From a virus (lineage: Duplodnaviria; Heunggongvirae; Uroviricota; Caudoviricetes), in the IMG/VR virus record IMGVR_UViG_2531839665_000026, positions 1-13,781 of that record: 13,781 nt of DNA. One strand, given 5' to 3'. The position numbers and the translations under genes were made by a program. Shown here piece by piece: positions 449 to 13,781 of the stretch. The notes under the pieces are model-generated. The model saw only the letters and a program-made list of their open reading frames with translations. It did not search any database and was not told the origin of the DNA. Every line of letters begins with the position of its first letter. Positions within the stretch are counted from its first letter, which is position 1.

Positions 449-2200
449 ATGATTCAGGACGCTTTTGTGCGCCAGCGTGCGCGGCAACTTTACTGGCAGG
501 GTTATCCGCCCGCAGAAATATCACGTCTGATGGGAATAAACCCGAACACGATTTATGCGTGGAAAAAACGCGACCAGTGGGATGAAACGCCACCCGTGCA
601 GCGTGTCACGCAGTCCATCGATGCGCGCCTCATCCAGCTCACTGAAAAACAGAATAAAACAGGTGGTGACTTCAAGGAAATAGACCTGCTGACCCGGCAG
701 CTTAAAAAACTGCATGATGGCCAGCCGGATGCGACGGCCACAGGAAAGAAAGGCCGGGCGAAAAAACTCAAAAATCATTTCACGCCGGAACAGATTGCCG
801 CACTGCGGGAAAAAATCATCAGCAGGCTGGAGTGGCATCAGCGGGGCTGGTTTGACTCCCTGACCCTTTGCAGGGAAGCCGGGATACGTAACAGGATGAT
901 CCTGAAATCCCGACAGATTGGGGCGACCTGGTATTTTGCACAGGAAGCACTGCTGATGGCGCTGCGTGACGATGTGGCGCAACCTTACCAGCGTAACCAG
1001 ATTTTTTTGTCTGCGTCGCGTCGTCAGGCGTTCCAGTTTAAAAGCATTATTCAGAAGGCCGCGGCTGAAGTTGATGTGGAGCTGAAAGGGGGCGATAAAA
1101 TCATCCTCTCAAACGGCGCAGAGCTGCATTTTCTCGGCACTTCTGCTGCGTCGGCACAGTCCTATACGGGCAATTTTTATTTTGATGAATTTTTCTGGGT
1201 CAGTCGCTTTGCCGAACTGCGCAAGGTGGCTGGCGCTATGGCAACCCTCAGCGGACTGCGGCGCACCTACTTCTCCACGCCATCCACCGAAACGCACGAG
1301 GCATACGCCTACTGGAACGGCGACCGCTGGAACGAGAAAAAGGCCTCGCATAAACGCCAGCGTTTTTCTGTGGACTGGAAAACGCTGCATAACGGGCTTA
1401 TCTGCCCTGACCGGACGTGGCGGCAAATTGTCACGCTGGAAGATGTGGTTAATCACGGCTGGAAACACACCGATATTGACGAAATCCGTGATGAAAACAC
1501 CGAAGACGAGTTCCTCAATCTCTATATGTGTGAGTTTGTTCGCGAAGGGGAATCGGCATTTAACCTGAATATCCTGATTGGCTGCGGTGTTGACGGATAC
1601 GACGACTGGAAAGACTGGAAACCTTTTGCTCCCCGCCCGATGGGGAATCGTCCGGTATGGATTGGGTATGACGCAAACGGCAGCAGTGGCAACGGGGACA
1701 GCGGCGCTGTGTCCGTGGTGGTTCCTCCGGCTGTTCCTGGTGGCCGTTTTCGAACGGTGGAGACGCGACGCGTTCAGGGGCTGGAGTTTGAAGAACAGGC
1801 CAGAGTCATTGAAGAGTTCACGTGTCGCTACAACGTGGAACACATCGGCATTGATGTGACGGGCGGGAACGGGGAGGCTGTTTATCAGATAGTGAAACGG
1901 TTTTTCCCTGCCGCTATTCCGTACACCTTCACGCTGTCATCCAAACGGTCGCTGGTACTGAAAATGCAGCAAATAATGCGTGCCGGACGGTGGGAATACG
2001 ATCGCGCCGAACGCGAGCTGGTCGCGGCCTTTAACGCCGTGCGTAAGGTGAAAACACCGGGTGGCTTTATCACTTACGAAACGGACCGCGCGAGGGGGAT
2101 CAGCCACGGCGACCTTGCGTGGGCAACCATGCTTGCTGTCATTAACGAACCAATTGGCGGCGAAGGAGAAAAACGAGCGTTTCACGGTTATGGAGTTCTG
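449..2200 (+). CDS. P: Terminase large (ATPase/nuclease) subunit gpP-like; no in-frame stop, frame continues into the portal
   Basis: N-terminal HTH-like segment (YWQGYPPAEISRLMGINPNTIYAWKKRDQWDE), Walker A-like KSRQIGATWYF, Walker B-like FYFDEFFW, and acidic nuclease-domain motifs (WIGYDANGSSGNGDSGAVSVV, HGDLAWATMLAV). The 584 codons before the internal ATG at 2201 compare with about 590 aa for P2 gpP. AGGGGG lies 4 nt before the ATG at 449. Confidence 0.85.
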
Positions 2201-3247
2201 ATGAGCAGAAAAAATAAAAAAGTGCGCATGAGTTCACGCATTGATCTCGCTGATGCGCTCAGGAAAGAATCATCGCTCAGTGCATTCACATTTGATGGTC
2301 CTTATCGCCTGACCGGGCATGACCTGCTGGACAATATGTACTGTGCTGATAACGGGCGGTGGTATGAAACCCCGGTGGACTGGTACGGTCTGGCAAGAGC
2401 CGCCCGGCAAACGTCCTGGCATCAGTCTGCGCTTTACTTTAAGCGCAATGTATTGCTCGGTTGCTACATCCCGCACCCGCTGCTTTCCCGGCAGGATTTC
2501 TCGGCGCTGGCGCTGGACTGGTTTGTGTTCGGTAACGCATTCCTTGAGCTTCGGAGCAATATGCTCGGCGAACCACTTAAATTACGGCACGCACTGGCGA
2601 AATACATGCGACGCGGAAGCGATCTTGAATCATGGTGGTATGTGCAGGATGGCAAGGACGCGTTTCAGTTTCGCCCTGGCAAAGTGTGCCACCTGATGAA
2701 TCCGGACATTAACCAGGAAATTTACGGCATGCCGGAATATCTCGGCGCATTACTCTCGGCCAGCCTGTCTCATTCGGCGGACATGTTCAGAAAACTGTAT
2801 TACGACAATGGATCCCACGCCGGGTGCATCATCTACATCGGTGCAGCGCAGGTAAACCGCGAAAGCATGGACTCCCTGAAAGAAACGCTACAGGGTGCGC
2901 GTGGTGGTGGTGCGTTTAAAAACGTGCTCATTCATGCGCCCAACGGGGGCAAAGAGGGGGTGCAAATTTTGCCGTTCCAGCAGATCACCGCAAAGGATGA
3001 GTTCATGAATGTTAAGGCGGCATCCCGTGATGATGTGCTGGCTGCGCACCGCGTTCCGCCGCAACTGATGGGGGCGATGCCGGGTGAAAAAAGTGCGTTT
3101 GGTGATGTGGAGAAGGCCGCGCGGGTTTACGCAATTAACGAGCTGATGCCCGTCATGGAGGCCATGAAGCATATCAATGACTGGCTTGGCGAAGAGGTGA
3201 TCCGATTTAACCCTTACGCACTGCTGGACACCCAGCCCACATCCTGA
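2201..3247 (+). CDS. Q: Portal protein gpQ-like (348 aa if initiated at the internal ATG at 2201)
   Basis: Follows P on the same strand as in P2. ATG at 2201 is preceded by GGAG at 2192-2195 (5-nt spacer). Length of 348 aa compares with about 344 aa for P2 gpQ. It has a basic N-terminus (MSRKNKKVRMSSR) followed by a conserved-looking core. Stop codon TGA at 3245-3247. Confidence 0.7.
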   Translation: MSRKNKKVRMSSRIDLADALRKESSLSAFTFDGPYRLTGHDLLDNMYCADNGRWYETPVDWYGLARAARQTSWHQSALYFKRNVLLGCYIPHPLLSRQDFSALALDWFVFGNAFLELRSNMLGEPLKLRHALAKYMRRGSDLESWWYVQDGKDAFQFRPGKVCHLMNPDINQEIYGMPEYLGALLSASLSHSADMFRKLYYDNGSHAGCIIYIGAAQVNRESMDSLKETLQGARGGGAFKNVLIHAPNGGKEGVQILPFQQITAKDEFMNVKAASRDDVLAAHRVPPQLMGAMPGEKSAFGDVEKAARVYAINELMPVMEAMKHINDWLGEEVIRFNPYALLDTQPTS

Positions 3248-3671: not shown

Positions 3672-3698
3672 TTGTGCAAATTTGTGCACTATTGTGCA
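3672..3698. repeat. Three helically phased direct repeats TTGTGCA at exact 10-bp spacing
   Basis: TTGTGCA at 3672-3678, 3682-3688 and 3692-3698. The middle copy contains the palindrome GTGCAC. They lie in the non-coding cos-expected region between Q and the cargo operon. Confidence 0.6.
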
Positions 3699-3705
3699 TT
3701 GAAAT

Positions 3706-3728
3706 AAACGCCCTGGAAGAGGGCGTTT
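3706..3728 (-). terminator. Stem-loop terminator ending the minus-strand cargo operon (partly bidirectional)
   Basis: AAACGCCCT (3706-3714) / AGGGCGTTT (3720-3728), loop GGAAG, 10 nt past the stop of the 112-aa gene. On the minus-strand RNA the stem is followed by AUUUC. Confidence 0.6.
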
Positions 3729-3738
3729 TGGCTCATTT

Positions 3739-4077
3739 CTATAGCTTTGATGCAGGCTGGGCTAGGTCTCCTTTGATGCCAGTGTTTACAACCTGACAAG
3801 CCTCTTTGAGTACCCAGTCAACAGCGTCTTTCCATGCTCCGGTTTCGGCTGGCGGATTCTCACGCTTTACCAGTTCATAGAATCGTACTGCTCTAACCAG
3901 TCCATCTGACGGTTTTGCCTGTAGTGCAGCCTGAGCTATGCGGTATGCCTGGAGCATACGGGCGTCGTTGATATCCATTCCGAACGGAATTTCTGATGAT
4001 TGTGATTCTGCATCTTCAAGCCTGGCAATTTCTTTACGTAAAAAGTATTTCAACTCTTGTTTTTGTTTTCTGTTCAT
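3739..4077 (-). CDS. Hypothetical protein, 112 aa, last gene of the cargo operon
   Basis: ORF with AGGGAA-type SD 6 nt upstream of ATG at 4077. Charged and probably helical ([26 protein letters not shown]...). No family recognised. AT-rich relative to the phage backbone. Confidence 0.55.
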
Positions 4078-4405
4078 GCGTTTTTCCCTTTTTGTCTGTC
4101 ACTTCTCTCCTGATAATTTCATTGCACAAATCCACGCACTCATTGCAGATGCAAACAGACGGTCCGGCAATCACCTTTGTGACTTCGTACTGAGATTTAT
4201 TGCAGAAGCTGCAATAAATCGTCTCCTCGCCTGAAGTCCATGTTTTGCTGGTTTCGCCAGACATCAGTTGTTTGAGGTCTTTTTCACGACGAAGAACTAT
4301 CTGGCCACATTCAGCTATTTTTTGGATGTTGACATTTTCTTCTTTCGCCAGCGCTTCCATCCGCTCAATCAGTCGCTGCGCTTTTTCTCTGTCAATGTGT
4401 TGCAT
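4034..4405 (-). CDS. Small protein (123 aa) with a ClpX-type C4 zinc-ribbon domain
   Basis: Residues around 62-100, [39 protein letters not shown], align almost position for position with the N-terminal zinc-binding domain of E. coli ClpX as I recall it ([40 protein letters not shown]). GGGGG SD lies 5 nt before ATG at 4405. The last 44 nt overlap the next gene. Confidence 0.65.
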
Positions 4406-4439
4406 TGTGTCCCCCTTGTTTATGTTCCCGGATTAAAGT

Positions 4440-4463
4440 CATCAGGGCGGATGCGCCCTGATG
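4440..4463. other. Intra-operon perfect hairpin between the parR-like and zinc-ribbon genes
   Basis: CATCAGGGCG (4440-4449) / CGCCCTGATG (4454-4463), loop GATG. A third copy of CGCCCTGAT follows at 4484-4492. Confidence 0.5.
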
Positions 4464-4468
4464 TTGTG

Positions 4469-4780
4469 TTATTCGGGAAATAACGCCCTGATATTTCCGG
4501 CCATCCGACTGGTTATCTGTGTGGTTGGTACTGGCTGTGACGCGGGGCGTTCTGTCCTGGTTTGTGTCACTGATAACGCCTCATCGTCAGCCCATGCAGC
4601 CAGTCGGTAAGCCTCTGCCGGATTCATTTTCAGAAGTGCCAGCCCGGCCAGAAAAGCCACACGTTGGCCGCTTTTGCGGGCTTCTGGTGTAAGGCTGTCC
4701 AGCCAGGCGCATGCTTCGCCTTCGTTCTTGACGGCGGCGGGCTTCAGATAGAAACTTATCCGTCTGGTTGGTGTCGTCAT
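4469..4780 (-). CDS. parR: ParR-like small DNA-binding protein (103 aa from internal ATG)
   Basis: Translation from ATG at 4780 (MTTPTRRISFYLKPAAVKNEGEACAWLDSLTPEARKSGQRVAFLAGLALLKMNP...NIRALFPE) parallels plasmid R1 ParR as I recall it (..RTIAFKLNP...CDTLDSIPQGERSRLNRAALTAGLALYRQDP...NILRSLFPKE). GGAG lies 7 nt upstream, inside the end of parM. There is a 4-nt gap after the parM stop. The upstream 45 codons of the ORF-track entry overlap parM and are not used. Confidence 0.65.
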   Translation of the reverse strand: MTTPTRRISFYLKPAAVKNEGEACAWLDSLTPEARKSGQRVAFLAGLALLKMNPAEAYRLAAWADDEALSVTQTRTERPASQPVPTTQITSRMAGNIRALFPE

Positions 4781-4784
4781 TGGT

Positions 4785-5744
4785 TTACTCCTTGTCCATT
4801 GCGTACAGCCCATTAACCAGAGCAAACTGTGGCACCCCGTCCGCGATGAAAGTCGCATTAACTCCGCAGGCTTCGCGGATAGCGGGTGCCGCAATCTCCG
4901 CCCCGCCACCGACAACCATCACCCGCCCGTAACCCGAAAAACCCGCCAGCGCGCGGATCACTCGTTGTTTCAGTGTTTCTTCCTTTTCACGAATAACCGC
5001 CATCAGGCTGTCGTAATGCGCGTCATTGTGGATGTGCTGGCGCAGCCAGGCTTCATCGTGGCGATGTTCGATAATGGTATTGGCGATATGGTGACTGGTA
5101 CGCATACCGTTAGTGGCCATCACCGACAGTACGGCATCGGCTATCAGGGAAACGCCTACGTGTGGATCGCAAAACACCTGGCTGATACCTGCCAGTTGTC
5201 CCTGGACCTTTGCCACATCCAGCGTGGTTCCGCCTAAATCCACAATCAGCAGGGATTCAAACGGACTCATGTCAGCCAGAGCCTTAAAGCCAGCCGGAAT
5301 GGATTCAGGCATAACCCGCACGTTACGGATAGTGAATGCTTCGCCGTTCTGGTACTCCACCGGGCGCATAACGTTCGCTTTTTTGCGGTTGATGTTGGCC
5401 ATGTCCGGCTGTGCGTTTGTGTCGAAATACTCGCTCAGTGGCAGGGTGACAACCACATCCACCTCCTGTGGCGTGATGCCTGATTTGACCAGTGCGTGAT
5501 GAATGGCAATGACATTCACATCGCTGTATTGGTATTGCGTGTCGGTCGTCTGGACAAAGCGATCGCTGACCGGATCAAAACCGTAGCGCACGCCATCAAG
5601 CATGTAGTTCGCGGGCTGCGTGCCACTGAACGGCGCAGACCATTCCGACTTGAAGCTGTTCGGGCTGATGGCGTTGCGGCGTTCGCCGTTCTCAGTCCAT
5701 GCCAGCTTGATGTTGGTGGAGCCGTCGTCGATACAAATTTTCAT
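4785..5744 (-). CDS. parM: ParM/StbA-like actin-fold segregation ATPase (319 aa)
   Basis: Alignable along its whole length to plasmid R1 ParM (StbA) as I recall it. Shared blocks include IDDGSTNIKL, YSDVNVIAIHHAL, VMPESIPAG, DLGGTTLD and VVGGGAE. Length of 319 aa compares with about 320 aa for R1 ParM. Confidence 0.8.
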   Translation of the reverse strand: MKICIDDGSTNIKLAWTENGERRNAISPNSFKSEWSAPFSGTQPANYMLDGVRYGFDPVSDRFVQTTDTQYQYSDVNVIAIHHALVKSGITPQEVDVVVTLPLSEYFDTNAQPDMANINRKKANVMRPVEYQNGEAFTIRNVRVMPESIPAGFKALADMSPFESLLIVDLGGTTLDVAKVQGQLAGISQVFCDPHVGVSLIADAVLSVMATNGMRTSHHIANTIIEHRHDEAWLRQHIHNDAHYDSLMAVIREKEETLKQRVIRALAGFSGYGRVMVVGGGAEIAAPAIREACGVNATFIADGVPQFALVNGLYAMDKE

Positions 5745-5776
5745 GTCGCTTTTCCTTATGTTGATTAATTAATCGT

Positions 5777-5811
5777 TTACGGGATTCTGAAATCCCGTTT
5801 TTGCCTGTTTT
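5777..5811. repeat. Repeat R1: 35-bp hairpin-containing unit in the A/parM intergenic space (candidate parC-like site or promoter)
   Basis: TTACGGGATTCTGAAATCCCGTTTTTGCCTGTTTT. The internal stem ACGGGAT/ATCCCGT is followed by a T-rich tail on the plus strand. Confidence 0.6.
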
Positions 5812-5820
5812 GTGCGCGCT

Positions 5821-8643
5821 TCATATATCGCTGCGCGTTTTTTGCTCATTTACGGGATTCGTGAGTCCCGTTTCTGTCTGTTTTTTGTTTCCACTGGTCA
5901 GGCCACCCTGCAGCAGGTCTGCTTTGCGGTTGGCGCGTTCAGTGGTTTCACTGATTCTCTGTGCGTGCTCTGCGTCACGGATGGCGCGCAGCATGTCAGA
6001 AAGCACGGTAACGGGGGTTTTCATGGTGTTCTGGTCCTGCTGAAGTGTGGATGCCAGACGTGCGGCGGCTTCGGGGTCTGATGCCCCCAGTTGTTCCAGA
6101 TAGCTGGCGACCGGGTTATGGCGGATCTCTGTGCTGCTTACGCCGTGATTACGGCTCAGGCGCTGCCAGAGCTGCGTGATTCGGCTGTCCGGGCGGGTAT
6201 CCGGTTTGCGTACAATTTCAAATCCCTGCGGTGCAATGATGCTGCCGTCAACGTACAGGCTGCCGCCCCGTAGCAGGTGCTGCATCTGCTGTTCACCGAT
6301 ATGCAGGCCGAGAGATTCGGCAGACTCCCGCCATTCTTTAGCGAGTAATTCGTGGTTATCAGGCAAAGGCCGCTGCTGTTTGCGGCTCTGTGTCCAGCTC
6401 TGCATTTCATCACTGCTGTTTTTTGCCTGTTTGTCACGAAGCGAACGCATCAGCGCCCGGCGTTCGTGCCGTTTCAGTGAGCGCATCCATTCGTTCACTT
6501 CAACGCCATCAGGGAGCTGCGGCCACGGTGCTGGCTGTTCTTCCGGCTGTTCTGTCCCGTTGTTGTTCGTTTCCTGTACACGGGGACAGTTATTGCCACG
6601 AGTCCAAGGGGCGGCAGGGCCGCCCTGAAGGTCAAAACCATTTTCGCGGGCGCTGTCTTCCGCTTCCGGTTTACGTCTTACCAGCTTCCAGTTATCCGGA
6701 TGTGTGCACACACGGGAAGACTCCCCGATGAGTGGTGACCAGATCCCGTAAATCTGTACGCTCTGTTCGCCGTAATCGTTCAGCTCATCTGCGAGGTCGT
6801 AGGCGGTGCGAATCAGGTAGTCTTTGCGTGGAACAAGTACGCCGCCCTGTTTCTCAATGTAGGAGGCAAAACATCCGGCATCAGCGGCAGCGAGCACTGC
6901 ATCCATTGCGTCATCCTTCAGCCGTTGCGGGCCTTCCGGGTTGCGTGCCATCTGGCTGGCAAGGCGACGCAGTTCACGCCACACCTGACGGGAGGGGATG
7001 CCAAAGAACTGGAACTGGCGGACCCGGTGAAGGCGCGCCCAGCCAATGGCGCGTTCCACGCTCTCGGTCATTGATTTTCCGGTTTCGTGGTCAACGCGTG
7101 GTTTGCCTGTTTTCGGGTCGATGCCATCCACGGCGCGGCTGTCCAGGTTCTTTCCGATGTAGGTGGCGATGTAGCTGGTTGGCGTGCCTTTTGAGCCGTC
7201 GACGTACTCCGCTTTAAAACGCGGAGTTATGTCATCGCCCAGCTCGTGGCGGTCTTCCTGAATGGCAATATCGCAGACGTGGGACACGATGGTTTCAATC
7301 TCGTCCGGATGTGCAAAGACCATCATATGCCAGTGCACGGTGCCGTCATGGTGAGGCTCCACCGTGCGGATGCCATACCAGCGCAGGCCGTCGCGGTTCA
7401 GTTTCTTGCGGACCGCCGCAAAAAACGTGTTAACCAGGTAATCGCTGGAGTCGCGCATGGTGGCCCCGTTCCATTTGGGATTCGGATGACCGTTCTCTGT
7501 TGTAGCGTGGTATTTTGACGGGCAGGTGACAGTCAGAAACACCGCTCTGTCGCCACGGGCTTCGGCCAGAAGTTCCAGTCCCTTCATGGTGGCCATCATT
7601 TCTGCCTTACGGTGAACCGGGTTACTTACTCCCGCGTAATACACTGTCTCGAGATCAATCGTGAACCCGTCTTCATTTTCCAGCATGAAACTTTTCAGGA
7701 AATCGCGTGTTTTCTCGCGCTGTGCGCGAAACTCGCTTAACGCGTCCTGGCTCAGATAGGGTGATGTTTTTCTGGAAACCAGACAGGCGGCGCGGAGTTG
7801 TTCTTCTCTCCACTCGCAACGTAACAGCCACAATTTGCGTTTCCACCAGTCCGCACAGGTCAGGCGAAGGATTGCACCCGGCAGCAGTTCTGTGTCCGGT
7901 TCGTTCCTCCGGTCTTTGTCTGTTGTCAGTGCGTCATAATGTGGAGGCATGGTGTGCAGATGTAACGCCATGCGAGCCAGCAGCTGATACGCCTTCAGCG
8001 TTATATCCATGGTCAGCTCGCCATCGGTCGCGCCAAAGCCATCGCAGAGTTTTTCGAAGGTGCTGCTGAACATTGCCGCCGTCATGACGGCCAGTGTCTG
8101 TATCTGGTGTTTGTTGAGCTGCGGCAGGTAAAGTAAATCGTCCAGACGTTCACGTCCGGCAAGGGAGCGATAACCCGGAGTCAGCCAGCGTCCGTCAGTG
8201 CGGGCCAGACGTTCCAATATTTTGCGCAGGGTTCCGCGTGCATAGCGTTCCGCCTGCCAGCTCTTTTTGCCTTTCCGGCGATCGGCTTCCTGCTTTTTGC
8301 GCAGGAAGGAGAGGTGGCGAATAAGCGGATCGCGCAGATAGGACGGCAGCAGGCGCAGCGAGGCCATGGCTTCATCCACCGCACCGCGTGCCTGTTTTCT
8401 GGCGTCTCTGGCCAGTGTGATGGTTTTGTCCTGCTTTTCCTGTGCGTCCAGGCTTTTATTAATCAGGTTGCCCAGCGGCGTTGCGGAGAACGCCGCATCA
8501 GCCATTTCCTGGCGTCGCTCGTTCTCTACCCGGTAAGCATCCAGCCAGGAGGAAAGCGCGGATTCAGGTGCGGGGATCCCCGTACCTTCACGCCCTACTG
8601 CGTGGCGCGGTTGTTGCCAGTCCCTGATGTACTCTGTCGTCAT
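5821..8643 (-). CDS. A: Rolling-circle replication initiator gpA-like (HUH endonuclease), 940 aa
   Basis: Long minus-strand ORF with an HUH-type motif (TVHWHMMVF) and paired tyrosines (TSYIATYIGK), as in the P2 gene A protein. It sits downstream of cox and the small early genes, as in P2. It is longer than P2 gpA (about 761 aa) because of a C-terminal extension. Confidence 0.85.
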   Translation of the reverse strand: MTTEYIRDWQQPRHAVGREGTGIPAPESALSSWLDAYRVENERRQEMADAAFSATPLGNLINKSLDAQEKQDKTITLARDARKQARGAVDEAMASLRLLPSYLRDPLIRHLSFLRKKQEADRRKGKKSWQAERYARGTLRKILERLARTDGRWLTPGYRSLAGRERLDDLLYLPQLNKHQIQTLAVMTAAMFSSTFEKLCDGFGATDGELTMDITLKAYQLLARMALHLHTMPPHYDALTTDKDRRNEPDTELLPGAILRLTCADWWKRKLWLLRCEWREEQLRAACLVSRKTSPYLSQDALSEFRAQREKTRDFLKSFMLENEDGFTIDLETVYYAGVSNPVHRKAEMMATMKGLELLAEARGDRAVFLTVTCPSKYHATTENGHPNPKWNGATMRDSSDYLVNTFFAAVRKKLNRDGLRWYGIRTVEPHHDGTVHWHMMVFAHPDEIETIVSHVCDIAIQEDRHELGDDITPRFKAEYVDGSKGTPTSYIATYIGKNLDSRAVDGIDPKTGKPRVDHETGKSMTESVERAIGWARLHRVRQFQFFGIPSRQVWRELRRLASQMARNPEGPQRLKDDAMDAVLAAADAGCFASYIEKQGGVLVPRKDYLIRTAYDLADELNDYGEQSVQIYGIWSPLIGESSRVCTHPDNWKLVRRKPEAEDSARENGFDLQGGPAAPWTRGNNCPRVQETNNNGTEQPEEQPAPWPQLPDGVEVNEWMRSLKRHERRALMRSLRDKQAKNSSDEMQSWTQSRKQQRPLPDNHELLAKEWRESAESLGLHIGEQQMQHLLRGGSLYVDGSIIAPQGFEIVRKPDTRPDSRITQLWQRLSRNHGVSSTEIRHNPVASYLEQLGASDPEAAARLASTLQQDQNTMKTPVTVLSDMLRAIRDAEHAQRISETTERANRKADLLQGGLTSGNKKQTETGLTNPVNEQKTRSDI
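5849..5883. repeat. Repeat R2: second copy of the 35-bp unit, lying inside the last codons of gene A
   Basis: TTACGGGATTCGTGAGTCCCGTTTCTGTCTGTTTT. 29 of 35 positions match R1, with most differences in the hairpin loop. It sits 72 bp to the right of R1. Confidence 0.6.
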
Positions 8644-9087: not shown

Positions 9088-9318
9088 TTAATGGAGTTTG
9101 TTTTGCTGCTGGATGAGCTGTTGAAGCTCGTGCAGATCATCCGCCAGATAACTGAAAACAGAGGCGGAATAAATGTTTGATAGTGCGTGGCTGCGCTCAT
9201 GCAGCATATTGATGTGCATGATTTGCGCGACGCGTGATGCGCGGAAAAGTCTACGGTTGATTTCAGTCTGGATGTGACGACGCGCAGCGTATGCGCGCTG
9301 TTGTTTGCGGTTTGCCAT
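9088..9318 (-). CDS. Hypothetical early protein, 76 aa
   Basis: ORF with AGAGG SD 7 nt before ATG at 9318. Basic N-terminus (MANRKQQRAYAARRHIQTEINRR). Confidence 0.55.
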   Translation of the reverse strand: MANRKQQRAYAARRHIQTEINRRLFRASRVAQIMHINMLHERSHALSNIYSASVFSYLADDLHELQQLIQQQNKLH

Positions 9319-9361
9319 GGTGTGGCCTCTTTGCTCGGTGATAGAAATAGCTCACCATCCA

Positions 9362-9404
9362 GAGTTGAGAATCTCGGGGTGGCGAGACGTACAGGGTTCT
9401 CAAC
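9362..9404. repeat. Inverted repeat GTTGAGAA ... TTCTCAAC (25-nt loop), with a third direct copy of GTTGAGAATC at 9540-9549
   Basis: GTTGAGAATC at 9364-9373, its inverse TTCTCAAC at 9397-9404, and GTTGAGAATC again at 9540-9549. Both direct copies are preceded by CTTTGCTC. Confidence 0.55.
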
Positions 9405-9495
9405 ACCGGAGAGCAAAGAATCCGGCCCGACCGAAGTCGGCCCCGTACGCCCCGCCATAATTCTGACGCGAAAAAGACGTGGCAATACAGTACGC

Positions 9496-9518
9496 ACAAA
9501 AAAACCGCTGGCGCGGTT
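9496..9518 (-). terminator. Intrinsic terminator on the minus strand, downstream of the 67/88/99-aa gene block
   Basis: Stem AACCGC (9503-9508) / GCGGTT (9513-9518), loop TGGC. The plus-strand A7 run (9498-9504) becomes the U tract of a minus-strand transcript. Confidence 0.6.
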
Positions 9519-9590
9519 ATGCGCTTTGCTCTGTATCGGGTTGAGAATCCCGGCACCCGTTTTATGAGGTGCAGCGGAAATGTAACCTGA

Positions 9591-9619
9591 CCGATTGCGG
9601 CATGGCAAGCGGTTTTTTT
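9591..9619 (+). terminator. Intrinsic terminator on the plus strand, ending an unannotated plus-strand transcript
   Basis: CCGATTGC (9591-9598) / GCAAGCGG (9605-9612) with one A-G mismatch, loop GGCATG, followed by T7 (9613-9619). Confidence 0.5.
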
Positions 9620-9640
9620 GTGTGTGCATGTTCTGGTTTC

Positions 9641-9940
9641 TTACTGGTTCAGAAAAAAATCAAAAACCTTGTCAATGCGTTGCAGCAGCTCTTGCTGTAT
9701 TGCTTCCGGCGTTTCCGGTTCGCCGGGTGCCTCCAACGTCGCGCAGAAATCAGCGATTTCATGATGGAGTGTCAGGCGAATGGCAGGAGCCGTGGTTCTG
9801 GCGTGCTCCAGCTCATCCAGCAGTGCCAGCACAGCAGACGGCGAGAGCATTGCGCGAAACGCCAGTAATTTTTGAGGCGTTGCCATTCGTTGCAGGGCAA
9901 ATGCCAGTTCGCGTAGCTTCTGGTGGTTGATGGTGCTCAT
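9641..9940 (-). CDS. Hypothetical protein, 99 aa
   Basis: ORF whose ATG overlaps the upstream stop as ATGA (9937-9940). No family recognised. Confidence 0.55.
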   Translation of the reverse strand: MSTINHQKLRELAFALQRMATPQKLLAFRAMLSPSAVLALLDELEHARTTAPAIRLTLHHEIADFCATLEAPGEPETPEAIQQELLQRIDKVFDFFLNQ

Positions 9941-11958: not shown

Positions 11959-12246
11959 CTAAAGTCCCAGCCACAACAACCATGCGTCGCGGCGTTCTTT
12001 CGGTTGCTCAAAAAACGCTTTGCGCATGCCTTCGTTAAATGCTGGCAGATATACCCAGTTTTCTGATGCACGCGTCTTTACTGAACCTGGTTTCACAAAG
12101 TCAATTGTTGGTAGCTTTGCTGCGTCAATCATGGTTCTGACTGTGGATTCCTTGCGGCCGATCATCTTGGCGAATAGTTGATATGGCACCGCTTCAAGTG
12201 GATATGGTGCTACCTGAATGAACCCCCCAAGCTCTGATTCGCTCAT
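11959..12246 (-). CDS. cox: Cox-like excisionase / early-operon regulator (95 aa)
   Basis: Matches P2 Cox as I recall it (VPYQLFAKMIGRKESTVRTMIDAAKLPTIDF...ENWVYLPAFNEGMRKAFFEQPKERRDAWLLWLGL against ...IPYQEFAKLIGKSTGAVRRMIDKGKLPVIDM...EYWVYLPAWNNGLKLAYESRPKEIRDGWLMWLGL). AGGGAGA SD. Divergent from C. Confidence 0.85.
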   Translation of the reverse strand: MSESELGGFIQVAPYPLEAVPYQLFAKMIGRKESTVRTMIDAAKLPTIDFVKPGSVKTRASENWVYLPAFNEGMRKAFFEQPKERRDAWLLWLGL

Positions 12247-12320
12247 TGTGGTAATCTCCCTAATTCGTTCGAATGGCTCAAAATGGCTTATATCGGCTTA
12301 TTTGAGTGTTTTTATGTTTG

Positions 12321-12366
12321 TGCCCGATGTGGCATGTTGTGATGGAGGACATGCCCGATATGGCAT
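12321..12366. promoter_or_regulatory. Putative immunity operator: two 15-bp direct repeats in the cox/C switch region
   Basis: TGCCCGATGTGGCAT (12321-12335) and TGCCCGATATGGCAT (12352-12366), 31 bp apart. The second overlaps the likely C start. A consensus TTGACA on the minus strand at 12370-12375 abuts the second repeat. P2 C is known to bind a pair of direct repeats at the early promoter. Confidence 0.5.
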
Positions 12367-12680
12367 CTTTGTCAAGCATGGGTGAAAAATTTCGCCTGAT
12401 TCGTGAAGCAGAAGGTATGACCCGCCAGGAGTTTGCGGATTGTGTTGGGCTGCCTTATGGGACGGTAACTAACTATGAGGTGAGGGGGAAGCAAGTAACA
12501 GAGGGTGCCTTACTTAAGGTTACGAAACACCCTAAATTTAAGAAGTATGCTTATTGGTTATCAACAGATGAAACGATGCCGGAGGTCGGGCAAATTTCTC
12601 CGGCTCTCTCTCTTGATGGTTCCTGCAATTCGGAGGGAGATCGCGTTTCAACCGAAACAATCCAAAAATTATCCCGCTGA
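12360..12680 (+). CDS. C: C repressor-like immunity repressor (106 aa from ATG at 12360)
   Basis: MGEKFRLIREAEGMTRQEFADCVGLPYGTVTNYE...KFKKYAYWLSTDETMPEVGQISPALS parallels P2 C as I recall it (ISEKIVLMRKSEYLSRQQLADLTGVPYGTLSYYE...QFTKYTLWFMTNQIAPESGQIAPALA). The start is ambiguous between 12342, 12360 and 12378; the ORF-track start at 12306 is unlikely. Confidence 0.8.
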   Translation: MASLSSMGEKFRLIREAEGMTRQEFADCVGLPYGTVTNYEVRGKQVTEGALLKVTKHPKFKKYAYWLSTDETMPEVGQISPALSLDGSCNSEGDRVSTETIQKLSR

Positions 12681-12776
12681 GGCCAGAAAACTGGTTAGAC
12701 CTGCTTTTTGTCTGGTCTGATTATTGCTGGAAAGAGGCTGGAGAAATTGTAGAGCGGTTCATTGGAGGGCTTCGTA

Positions 12777-13781
12777 ATGTCGATTAAGAAGCTCGAAGAT
12801 GGTCGTTATTTGCTGGACATCAGGCCGAACGGACGCAAGGGAAAGCGCGTGCGTAAGGTATTTGACAAAAAATCGGTAGCGGTGGCCACTGAACGCTACA
12901 TCATGGCGAACGCTGAAAAGCGGGAATATATACAGGGCTACCGTGATCGTCGAACGCTAAATGATTTGCTTGAGTTGTGGTGGATGTATCACGGCCAGCA
13001 CAGGCGTAAGGCGGAAGAAGACCGAAAACAACTGCGCAACATAATCAATGAGCTTGGCGCTGATATGCAGGCTGTGGATCTTGATAAGCTGAAAATTATC
13101 GCGTGGCGTTCTCAAAAGATAGCTGATGGATTGAAACCGTCATCTGCTAACAGGTACATGAATCGGTTATCCGGAATGTTTACCGTGCTGAAAAAAATAG
13201 GTCTTTGGGATGCAGAACATCCAGTAAGGGGAATTTCTATTCTTTATGTATCTCCACGAGAAATGGCGTTCCTGTCACAGAAGGAAGTGGCGCTATTGCT
13301 CGATACACTGGAGGGCGACTACTGGCGTGTTGCGCTTTTGTGTTTAAGCACAGGGGCGCGCTGGAGTGAAGCTTGTAAGCTTCGTGGTGAACAGATAGTT
13401 CATAACCGTGTAACGTTTCTTGAAACCAAAAATGGCCGGAAGAGAACAGTGCCAATTTCGCAGGCAGTTTGTGAGGCGATCAAAACCAGAGAAACAGGCG
13501 GCTTGTTTGAGGTGAAGTACCGGGAATTCTGCCTGGCGCTGAAAAGAGTTAAGCCCGATTTACCAAAAGGCCAGGCTGCACATGTGCTGCGGCATACGTT
13601 CGCCAGCCATTTTGTGATGAACGGAGGAAACATTATTGCGCTTCAGAAGATTCTTGGTCACGCAACCATTCAGCAAACAATGGCATATGCGCATTTTGCA
13701 CCGGATTACCTGCAGGATGCGGTGGCCCTTAATCCGCTGAAAGGTGGCGTAAGTGTCCACGCAGTGTCCACGGGGGATTAA
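12777..13781 (+). CDS. int: P2-type tyrosine integrase (334 aa)
   Basis: From ATG at 12777 (GGAGGG SD with 7-nt spacer): MSIKKLEDGRYLLDIRPNGRKGKRVRKVFDKKS..., with the catalytic region ...LRHTFASHF...LGHATIQQTMAYAHFAPDYLQDAVALNP. This closely parallels P2 Int as I recall it. Stop codon at 13779-13781, the window edge. Confidence 0.9.
   Translation: MSIKKLEDGRYLLDIRPNGRKGKRVRKVFDKKSVAVATERYIMANAEKREYIQGYRDRRTLNDLLELWWMYHGQHRRKAEEDRKQLRNIINELGADMQAVDLDKLKIIAWRSQKIADGLKPSSANRYMNRLSGMFTVLKKIGLWDAEHPVRGISILYVSPREMAFLSQKEVALLLDTLEGDYWRVALLCLSTGARWSEACKLRGEQIVHNRVTFLETKNGRKRTVPISQAVCEAIKTRETGGLFEVKYREFCLALKRVKPDLPKGQAAHVLRHTFASHFVMNGGNIIALQKILGHATIQQTMAYAHFAPDYLQDAVALNPLKGGVSVHAVSTGD

Follow-up and report, generated by a model that had tools for sequence, protein, structure and literature searches.

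A stand-alone ClpX-type zinc-binding domain in the cargo region of P88-like prophages, a candidate mimic of the ClpX N-domain

Why would a temperate phage carry what looks like the docking domain of ClpX without the ATPase motor that normally stands behind it? The question is raised by a minus-strand gene of the IMG/VR record IMGVR_UViG_2531839665_000026, whose 13,781 nucleotides (the whole stretch analysed, called the window here) are a P2-type prophage of Escherichia coli of the phage P88 lineage (Peduoviridae, Xuanwuvirus). In ClpX, the N-domain forms a dimer on which SspB, RssB and N-domain-dependent substrates, among them lambda O, MuA and FtsZ, dock (PMC5415555). One hydrophobic pocket, F16/I46, serves lambda O, SspB, RssB and trigger factor alike (PMC7804408). 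For the phage gene, referred to here as the zinc-ribbon gene, we establish which domain it encodes, how the protein is built, how it is conserved and selected, and where the gene lies in genomes, and we tentatively propose, from sequence and by analogy, that its product may act in trans as a mimic of the ClpX N-domain, titrating the adaptors and substrates that depend on it.

The gene and its parts lie in the window as follows.

4034..4405, minus strand: zinc-ribbon open reading frame (ORF), 123 residues as read in the window
4259..4405, minus strand: helical hairpin, residues 1-49 (helices 6-23 and 27-49), predicted local distance difference test (pLDDT) ~82-93
4220..4258, minus strand: linker, residues 50-62, of low confidence and variable length (model and alignments)
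4100..4219, minus strand: ClpX-type C4 zinc-binding domain (ZBD), residues 63-102 (Pfam, PDB matches and predicted fold)
4211-4213, minus strand: zinc-ligand cysteine C65
4202-4204, minus strand: zinc-ligand cysteine C68
4151-4153, minus strand: C85, replacing Y34 of ClpX
4145-4147, minus strand: zinc-ligand cysteine C87
4136-4138, minus strand: zinc-ligand cysteine C90
4034..4084, minus strand: frameshift-derived C-terminal tail, residues 108-123, from a deletion in the T-run 4081-4085

The sequence-only reading of this DNA had called residues around 62-100 nearly a copy of the ClpX ZBD, and at the level of sequence this resemblance is real and far above chance. The Pfam hidden Markov model PF06689 (zf-C4_ClpX) matches residues 64-99 at E=3.6e-16 and 59.2 bits, against a cut-off of 27 (profile positions 2-38 of 39), and for residues 57-104 the best-matching solved structures are those of the E. 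coli ClpX ZBD (1ovx, E=4e-18; 2ds5, E=1.6e-17). Compared with residues 12-53 of K-12 ClpX, 30 of 42 positions are identical (71%), including the four cysteines and the stretch IAGPSV.IC.ECVDLCN.II. These cysteines, in the arrangement CxxC-(18)-CxxC, on whose conservation the earlier reading had staked its case, are invariant in our alignments A1 and A2 and in ~70 IMG/VR homologs. The pocket positions are kept as well: F67, the equivalent of ClpX F16, is invariant, and I97, the equivalent of I46, is mostly isoleucine, with a few valines or phenylalanines. The description as a near-copy needs amending at one position, as the window allele keeps the four cysteines but has a further one, C85, where ClpX has Y34; across the family this position is occupied by Y (37 sequences), F (28), W (2) and C (6, including the window, P88 and CB9615).

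The predicted structure agrees with the assignment. In a Foldseek search of the PDB with an AlphaFold2 monomer model, computed from an 11-sequence family alignment (mean pLDDT 78), the significant matches are solely to the ClpX ZBD structures 2ds5, 2ds6, 2ds8 and 1ovx, and the predicted ZBD superposes on the crystal forms 2ds5, 2ds6 and 2ds8 with a root-mean-square deviation of 0.6-0.9 Å, target template modelling (TM) scores of 0.88-0.92 and 69-76% identity (69-78% with 1ovx included). The helix that follows the ZBD (63-102) continues in the model into the frameshifted tail. The AAA+ body, also said by the earlier reading to be lacking, is indeed absent: the ClpX equivalog models TIGR00382 and PRK05342 score 51.1 and 48.7 bits against cut-offs of 370.75 and 359, and align only residues 60-114, to model positions 6-61, which is an N-terminal piece only. 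With scores so far under the cut-off, unfoldase activity is impossible, and by these measures the protein belongs to the zf-C4_ClpX domain family and is not ClpX proper.

The short helical N-terminal segment of the sequence-only reading is modelled as a two-helix hairpin, in which hydrophobic residues are conserved at heptad spacing (read from alignments A1 and A3). The low predicted TM score of the model (pTM 0.39) indicates that hairpin and ZBD have no fixed mutual orientation. Against Pfam, the hairpin finds no match better than E=0.04, and a HMMER search with residues 1-58, run exhaustively over 1.84 billion representatives, matched 11 proteins, ten of them short proteins or fragments of the zinc-ribbon family and the other a weak match to a protein of 1,212 residues (P0065). 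On the Pfam, exhaustive HMMER and Foldseek-PDB searches together, we reject the hairpin as a known domain; as far as sequence comparison can tell, hairpin and ZBD form a narrow, self-contained family in which the hairpin is known solely ahead of the ZBD. We also considered an XB-like docking motif in the hairpin (e.g., DLKQL or IVLRR) and rejected it, as these positions are unconserved across the family in alignments inspected by eye.

The existence of the gene is already catalogued and hence not new. It is gp19 of phage P88 (99% identity), bears the RefSeq name "ClpX C4-type zinc finger protein", and matches PHROG 6797 at full length (E=1.6e-57, residues 1-106 against profile positions 5-107 of 107), whose function label is "unknown". 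The family is also widely mislabelled, in older records, as "carboxylate--amine ligase" (GenBank/RefSeq entries for P88, D6 and many E. coli plasmids), a name for which we see no sequence support.

Is the gene, then, a stray fragment of the host clpX? A blastn search (word size 11) of 5,426 complete E. coli genomes with the 136-nt ZBD coding DNA detected family members only and no host clpX, and of the codons for the 30 residues shared with K-12 ClpX, 12 are the same and 18 differ, including AGC/TCT switches for serine and AGG/CGC switches for arginine. These two results rule out a recent capture of host clpX; with codons scrambled and clpX DNA undetected, the resemblance must be old and kept at the protein level, and does not reflect a recent gene fragment. 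Every ORF is intact among ~70 homologs, and the ratio of nonsynonymous to synonymous substitution rates (dN/dS; Nei-Gojobori, small samples) is ~0.1-0.5 for the hairpin, 0.2-0.5 for the ZBD and close to neutral for the linker. Judged from these ratios, all below 1 for the two folded domains, both are under purifying selection, which is evidence for a functional, constrained gene.

What, then, would such a protein do? We infer zinc binding, dimerisation, binding partners and any effect on proteolysis. The C-terminal 40 residues would fold as a zinc-bound ClpX ZBD, which would dimerise as the host domain does and display the same hydrophobic pocket, and the N-terminal hairpin would contribute oligomerisation or target specificity. 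Without an AAA+ motor or ClpP-docking loops, the protein could bind ligands of the ClpX N-domain but leave them undelivered; candidates are the adaptors SspB and RssB and the substrates lambda O, MuA, FtsZ and Dps. As the outcome, these ligands would be shielded from ClpXP or kept from remodelling by ClpX, in the style of an anti-adaptor.

The proposal draws on several lines of evidence. A free ZBD that has kept its pocket but lacks a motor is most readily read as a competitor for N-domain ligands, and a decoy or adaptor role is made plausible by the conserved F16/I46 pocket residues, by the in vitro finding that ClpXP degrades sigma-S less, in the RssB-dependent reaction, when the isolated ZBD is supplied in trans (PMC7226468), by purifying selection that retains the ZBD although its DNA has long diverged from clpX, and by the location of the gene in the cargo hotspot of P2-like phages. 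In other prophages, the same slot holds defence or addiction cargo, and in phage-plasmids the gene lies in early accessory arrays. On this basis, we consider that the zinc-ribbon protein could well titrate N-domain ligands of ClpX, with a confidence that stays somewhat short of even; the broader proposition, that temperate enterobacterial phages use a mimic of the ClpX docking domain to shut off N-domain-dependent ClpX pathways, we regard as doubtful.

Several points weigh against the proposal. In a zinc domain of 40 residues almost every position is structural, and fold and dimerisation alone predict high conservation; as unrelated actinobacterial stand-alone ZBD proteins are equally conserved, conservation is no proof that adaptor or ligand binding has been retained. 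The window copy, with its cysteine at the Y34 position and its frameshifted tail, may be impaired. Moreover, the PADLOC defence models give no match to the zinc-ribbon protein (the neighbouring gene matches at E=0.013, which is chance level), a search for a sigma-70-like promoter ahead of the gene found none, and the open-access literature that we searched holds no study of the protein.

The same features can be read differently. The phage ZBD might heterodimerise with the ClpX N-domain, or the hairpin might dock on ClpX, so that the protein would act as a built-in adaptor or tether; sitting on the hexamer, the hairpin would then bring in a specific protein of phage or host to be degraded or remodelled, or close the pore to others. 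Mixed dimers are conceivable given that the residues in common with the host domain include those of the C-terminal helix, a family-unique hairpin under purifying selection (dN/dS ~0.1-0.3) is what one would expect of a specific partner-binding module, and the flexible linker recalls adaptor architecture. But ClpX ZBD dimers are very stable and three of them are preformed per hexamer, which as a matter of background disfavours subunit exchange, the monomer model has no fixed interdomain geometry, and no partner is identifiable, as the neighbours vary between parM/stbB in P88-like prophages, neither of these in a second P2-like lineage (L049) and Ea22-like genes in phage-plasmids. We consider a tether unlikely.

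Alternatively, the ZBD could be merely a zinc-stabilised dimerisation scaffold, with the activity residing in the hairpin and independent of ClpXP, for instance in a small regulator of lysis-lysogeny or host physiology as found in Ea22/exo-xis-type arrays. Consistent with this, mosaic ead/Ea22-like genes surround or adjoin the zinc-ribbon gene, the ZBD is reused in other stand-alone proteins, such as the actinobacterial ones in which it precedes a helix-turn-helix-like C-terminus, and an allele with cysteine in place of the aromatic residue at the Y34 position is in circulation. On the other hand, simpler dimerisation modules are plentiful, the ZBD is still as close to enterobacterial ClpX as given above in spite of saturated synonymous change, and the retention of both pocket positions goes beyond what a generic zinc scaffold needs. 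A pure scaffold is likewise improbable in our view, and titration of N-domain ligands remains the reading that we carry forward.

Could the window copy itself simply be decaying? The ORF at 4034..4405 given by the sequence-only reading stands as a minus-strand gene with an ATG start and a Shine-Dalgarno sequence (GGGGGA) ~6 nt upstream, but its 3' end is particular to the window. The T-run at 4081-4085 has five T where all close relatives have six, and owing to this 1-nt deletion the protein carries 16 additional, unrelated C-terminal residues in place of the usual end ...KKGKNA*. The usual product has 110-111 residues and ends in ...KKGKNA or ...HEEKTHE (O55:H7 CB9615, ETEC1738, P88 and most IMG/VR copies). 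In the relatives, the stop of the zinc-ribbon gene and the start of the next gene overlap as ATGA, a coupling that is broken in the window, where the frameshifted ORF overlaps the following 112-residue gene by 44 nt.

A second homopolymer indel lies elsewhere in the window: near 2169-2173, an A-run has an extra A relative to close relatives, so that terminase and portal read as one ORF of 932 residues (449-3247, plus strand), whereas in the relatives the terminase large subunit (gpP-like) and the portal (gpQ-like) are two genes with a 1-nt overlap. The extra A is either a sequencing error or an inactivating prophage mutation, and both indels may be sequencing errors or private mutations. That the window copy is functionless, by decay or mis-sequencing, could be argued from the private deletion, which alters the C-terminus and breaks the ATGA coupling, from this second indel and from the cysteine at a conserved aromatic position; but the frameshift lies C-terminal of the ZBD and leaves residues 1-107 unaffected, the identical 123-residue form recurs in an independent IMG/VR record (L009), several genomes, phage P88 and O55:H7 CB9615 among them, have the Cys85 allele in an intact 110-residue ORF, and the homopolymer indels are possibly plain sequencing errors. 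We consider a functionless window copy quite improbable.

Within the ZBD coding sequence, positions 4194-4220 form an inverted repeat with perfect arms of 12 nt around a loop of 3 nt (GATTTATTGCAG aag CTGCAATAAATC), in the codons for IYCSFCNKS; the core of the repeat, TGCAGCTTCTGCA, recurs in the homolog of phage D6. The repeat is probably a consequence of the codon choice for C-S-F-C, and could form an mRNA or DNA hairpin.

The sequence-only reading had placed the gene in the cargo of a phage, and this is borne out by its setting in a P88-like prophage, between A-parM-stbB and cos. Its neighbours and other genes of the prophage are the following.

12762-13781: integrase
12306-12680: C-type repressor
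11959-12246: Cox
5821..8643, minus strand: replication endonuclease of the P2 gene A type, the last of the core early genes, bounding the cargo region on the left
4785..5744, minus strand: parM, actin-like plasmid segregation ATPase
4469..4780, minus strand: stbB, ParR-like partition adaptor (Pfam Plasmid_stab_B), immediately upstream of the zinc-ribbon gene
3739..4077, minus strand: 112-residue gene, downstream, translationally coupled (ATGA) to the zinc-ribbon gene in relatives

The order is A-parM-stbB-[zinc-ribbon gene-112-residue gene]-cos-portal, with portal and terminase on the opposite strand, and the zinc-ribbon gene occupies the variable region that extends from the replication gene A to cos and the portal gene, a hotspot of P2. 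The region from gene A to cos was described as a hotspot of variable cargo by Rousset et al. (2022; PMC9122126), who found a putative partition system there in about one quarter of P2-like phages and do not mention the zinc-ribbon gene. The complete ParM/StbB actin-type partition pair inside an integrated P2-like prophage, as seen in the window, fits their remark.

How widespread is the gene, and what does it travel with? The P88-type gene, at a nucleotide identity of at least 90%, is present in 112 of the 5,426 complete E. coli genomes, and the family including the ~50%-identical phage-plasmid type in 221 (~4%), at 128 chromosomal and 105 plasmid places. Carriers include the O55:H7, O145, ST131 and UTI89 lineages, as well as SSU5-like phage-plasmids of O104:H4 and Shigella sonnei. 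A scan of genome contigs for taxonomic spread gave genuine clpX genes only, among the matches listed.

In a survey of IMG/VR, 80 loci were kept, 72 of which are family loci. Forty are P88-like, with A-parM-stbB-zinc ribbon followed by a variable Ea22-like gene or nothing and then cos. In two loci from another P2-like lineage (L049 and L050), the zinc-ribbon gene is the last before cos, without ParM/StbB, and 28 are phage-plasmid fragments with an Ea22-like gene, the zinc ribbon, a 173-residue protein and DUF4752, and with no homolog of the ParM or StbB of the window within 4 kb. In two further loci, from other P2-like settings and with no match to ParM/StbB, the homologs are divergent (35-45% identity). 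In the annotated phage-plasmids D6 (P1-like) and p09EL50 (SSU5-like), the gene is likewise flanked by Ea22-like genes. One locus (L083, 2651-4372) encodes a ParM 98% identical, a StbB 54% identical and a zinc-ribbon protein 35% identical to those of the window; recombination must thus have broken the segment between parM and stbB, with stbB and the zinc-ribbon gene replaced as one piece.

Conversely, the zinc-ribbon gene is missing from most P2-like prophages that bear parM-stbB, in which the slot holds other cargo, such as a DUF4760 pair in ST131 or an Rrf2 regulator in STEC711; UTI89 has extra genes. The zinc-ribbon gene is thus a mobile accessory gene of temperate enterobacterial phages and not a fixed part of the partition system. 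That it would be an accessory part of ParM/StbB partition, aiding the persistence of the phage genome as a plasmid, is highly improbable, for although it comes right after parM-stbB, in the same orientation and without an intervening canonical terminator (in the 40 IMG/VR loci and the 112 E. coli genomes) and a divergent StbB accompanies the divergent zinc-ribbon protein behind a near-identical ParM in L083, the parM region matches ~1,700 of the 5,426 E. coli genomes while the gene is found in 112 of them, and L049, L050 and the 28 phage-plasmid loci have the gene without ParM/StbB, so that an obligatory link is ruled out.

In E. coli R1 (L006, 2578-3329), a phd/doc toxin-antitoxin pair is convergent to the zinc-ribbon gene and directly adjoins it. 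The Phd of P1 is a substrate of ClpXP, and the adjacency in R1 may or may not be meaningful.

The downstream neighbour is no more constant. The 112-residue protein of the window is a mosaic with a C-terminal module common to ead/Ea22-like proteins (PF13935), and by BLASTP it shows no similarity to what is encoded downstream of the homologs in D6 or p09EL50, which rules out a conserved two-gene module with the downstream gene; this protein and the downstream genes of the phage-plasmids all come from the mosaic Ea22-like pool. Database entries P0078-P0084 (91-191 residues) have the Ea22-like module annotated together with an N-terminal fragment of ParM, which points to frequent recombination or fusion at the spot of the 112-residue gene.

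How is the gene expressed? Two predicted RNA structures flank it and the 112-residue gene.

4440..4463, minus strand: GC-rich hairpin of 10 bp in the 63-nt spacer between stbB and the zinc-ribbon gene
3701..3729, minus strand: stem-loop with a U-tract (UUUAUUU), after the 112-residue gene and before cos

The spacer hairpin (-19.6 kcal/mol, z = -3.8, fold of 4406-4475) has no U-tract on the coding strand and is therefore not a canonical terminator, while the stem-loop at 3701-3729 (-14.8 kcal/mol, z = -3.8, fold of 3695-3742) is likely the end of the transcription unit. In the simplest reading, the zinc-ribbon and 112-residue genes belong to one transcription unit with parM-stbB, and possibly with gene A, and form its end. 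The zinc-ribbon gene would probably be co-transcribed with parM-stbB, in the terminal part of the early operon, and the timing of its expression is likewise inferred.

Two other features of the early region are recorded here. Rfam models match two RNAs above their gathering scores.

9375-9462 and 9498-9572, minus strand: C4 antisense RNA (78.5 bits) and the Hfq-binding small RNA isrK (62.8 bits), within the early operon (Rfam)

The stretch ~9127-9926 is without a counterpart in the otherwise closest prophage, ETEC1738, and suggests a P1/P7-type antisense immunity or derepression module. In addition, two 42-nt direct repeats (5773-5814 and 5846-5887), 73 nt apart and 81% identical, with the palindromic core ACGGGAnTC...GAnTCCCGT, lie across the 3' part of gene A and the spacer of 76 nt that precedes parM; each copy has the core, and the pair may serve as a parC/StbB binding site or as paired terminators for the opposite strand.

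What would follow if the zinc-ribbon protein did titrate N-domain ligands of ClpX? ClpXP controls RpoS, SOS and cell-division proteins, several antitoxins, phage lambda O and MuA, and many of these routes run through the small N-terminal domain that the phage has copied. Exclusion of ClpX-dependent competitors, such as Mu-like transposable phages, is then conceivable, ClpXP-triggered loss of antitoxins or abortive infection could be averted, and RpoS or phage and plasmid replication proteins could be stabilised. It would amount to a compact, readily transferable rewiring of host proteolysis, and to the first example in nature of a virus that inhibits an AAA+ protease by copying the very domain with which the protease recognises its substrates. 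Such domain mimicry would be a new class of protease modulator and offer a natural tool to block N-domain-dependent functions of ClpX. As the family occurs in ~4% of E. coli genomes, it would matter epidemiologically if the protein altered stress tolerance or phage susceptibility; if there were no effect on ClpXP, the protein would be merely another small phage accessory protein.

How, finally, does the protein compare with known systems? It shares the C4 fold, the zinc ligands and the F16/I46 pocket residues with the E. coli ClpX N-domain (residues 1-60; 1OVX, 2DS5-2DS8), from which it differs in lacking the AAA+ ATPase, in placing the ZBD C-terminally, behind a hairpin, in being phage-encoded by DNA long diverged from clpX, and, in the window allele, in the cysteine at Y34. 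The recombinant ClpX ZBD used as a competitor (PMC7226468) is likewise a free ZBD without a motor and provides the mechanistic model for our proposal; that one is a laboratory construct, whereas here a natural gene adds a conserved hairpin and the activity is putative. PHROG 6797, P88 gp19, D6 orf93 and the SSU5-like proteins belong to the same family over their full length, those of D6 and p09EL50 at ~50% identity.

The actinobacterial stand-alone ZBD proteins (125-136 residues) also carry PF06689 without AAA+, but with reversed domain order, an unrelated partner domain and in other taxa, so that the ZBD alone is in common. A family of stand-alone ClpX-type ZBD proteins of 124-182 residues, well populated and separate from that of the zinc-ribbon gene, was seen in metagenomes (P0022, P0037, P0042, P0044, P0048 and P0058; one metagenome-assembled genome is labelled Streptosporangiaceae), with the ZBD at the N-terminus and a conserved, helix-turn-helix-like C-terminal segment that ends in ...GVSWTRIGEALGVSKQAAWERFSGED.

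Small proteins that redirect or block proteolysis are well known, among them the anti-adaptors IraP, IraM and IraD, PinA of T4 and Gp4.5 of T7, which act against Lon, and RexB of lambda, which acts against ClpXP. Like the zinc-ribbon protein, they are small, several are phage-encoded, and none is itself a protease; yet they share no kinship with it in sequence or fold, and none copies the docking domain of the protease. If the decoy model is true, the zinc-ribbon protein would thus be a new variant of proteolysis modulator, one that mimics the docking domain of the protease itself.

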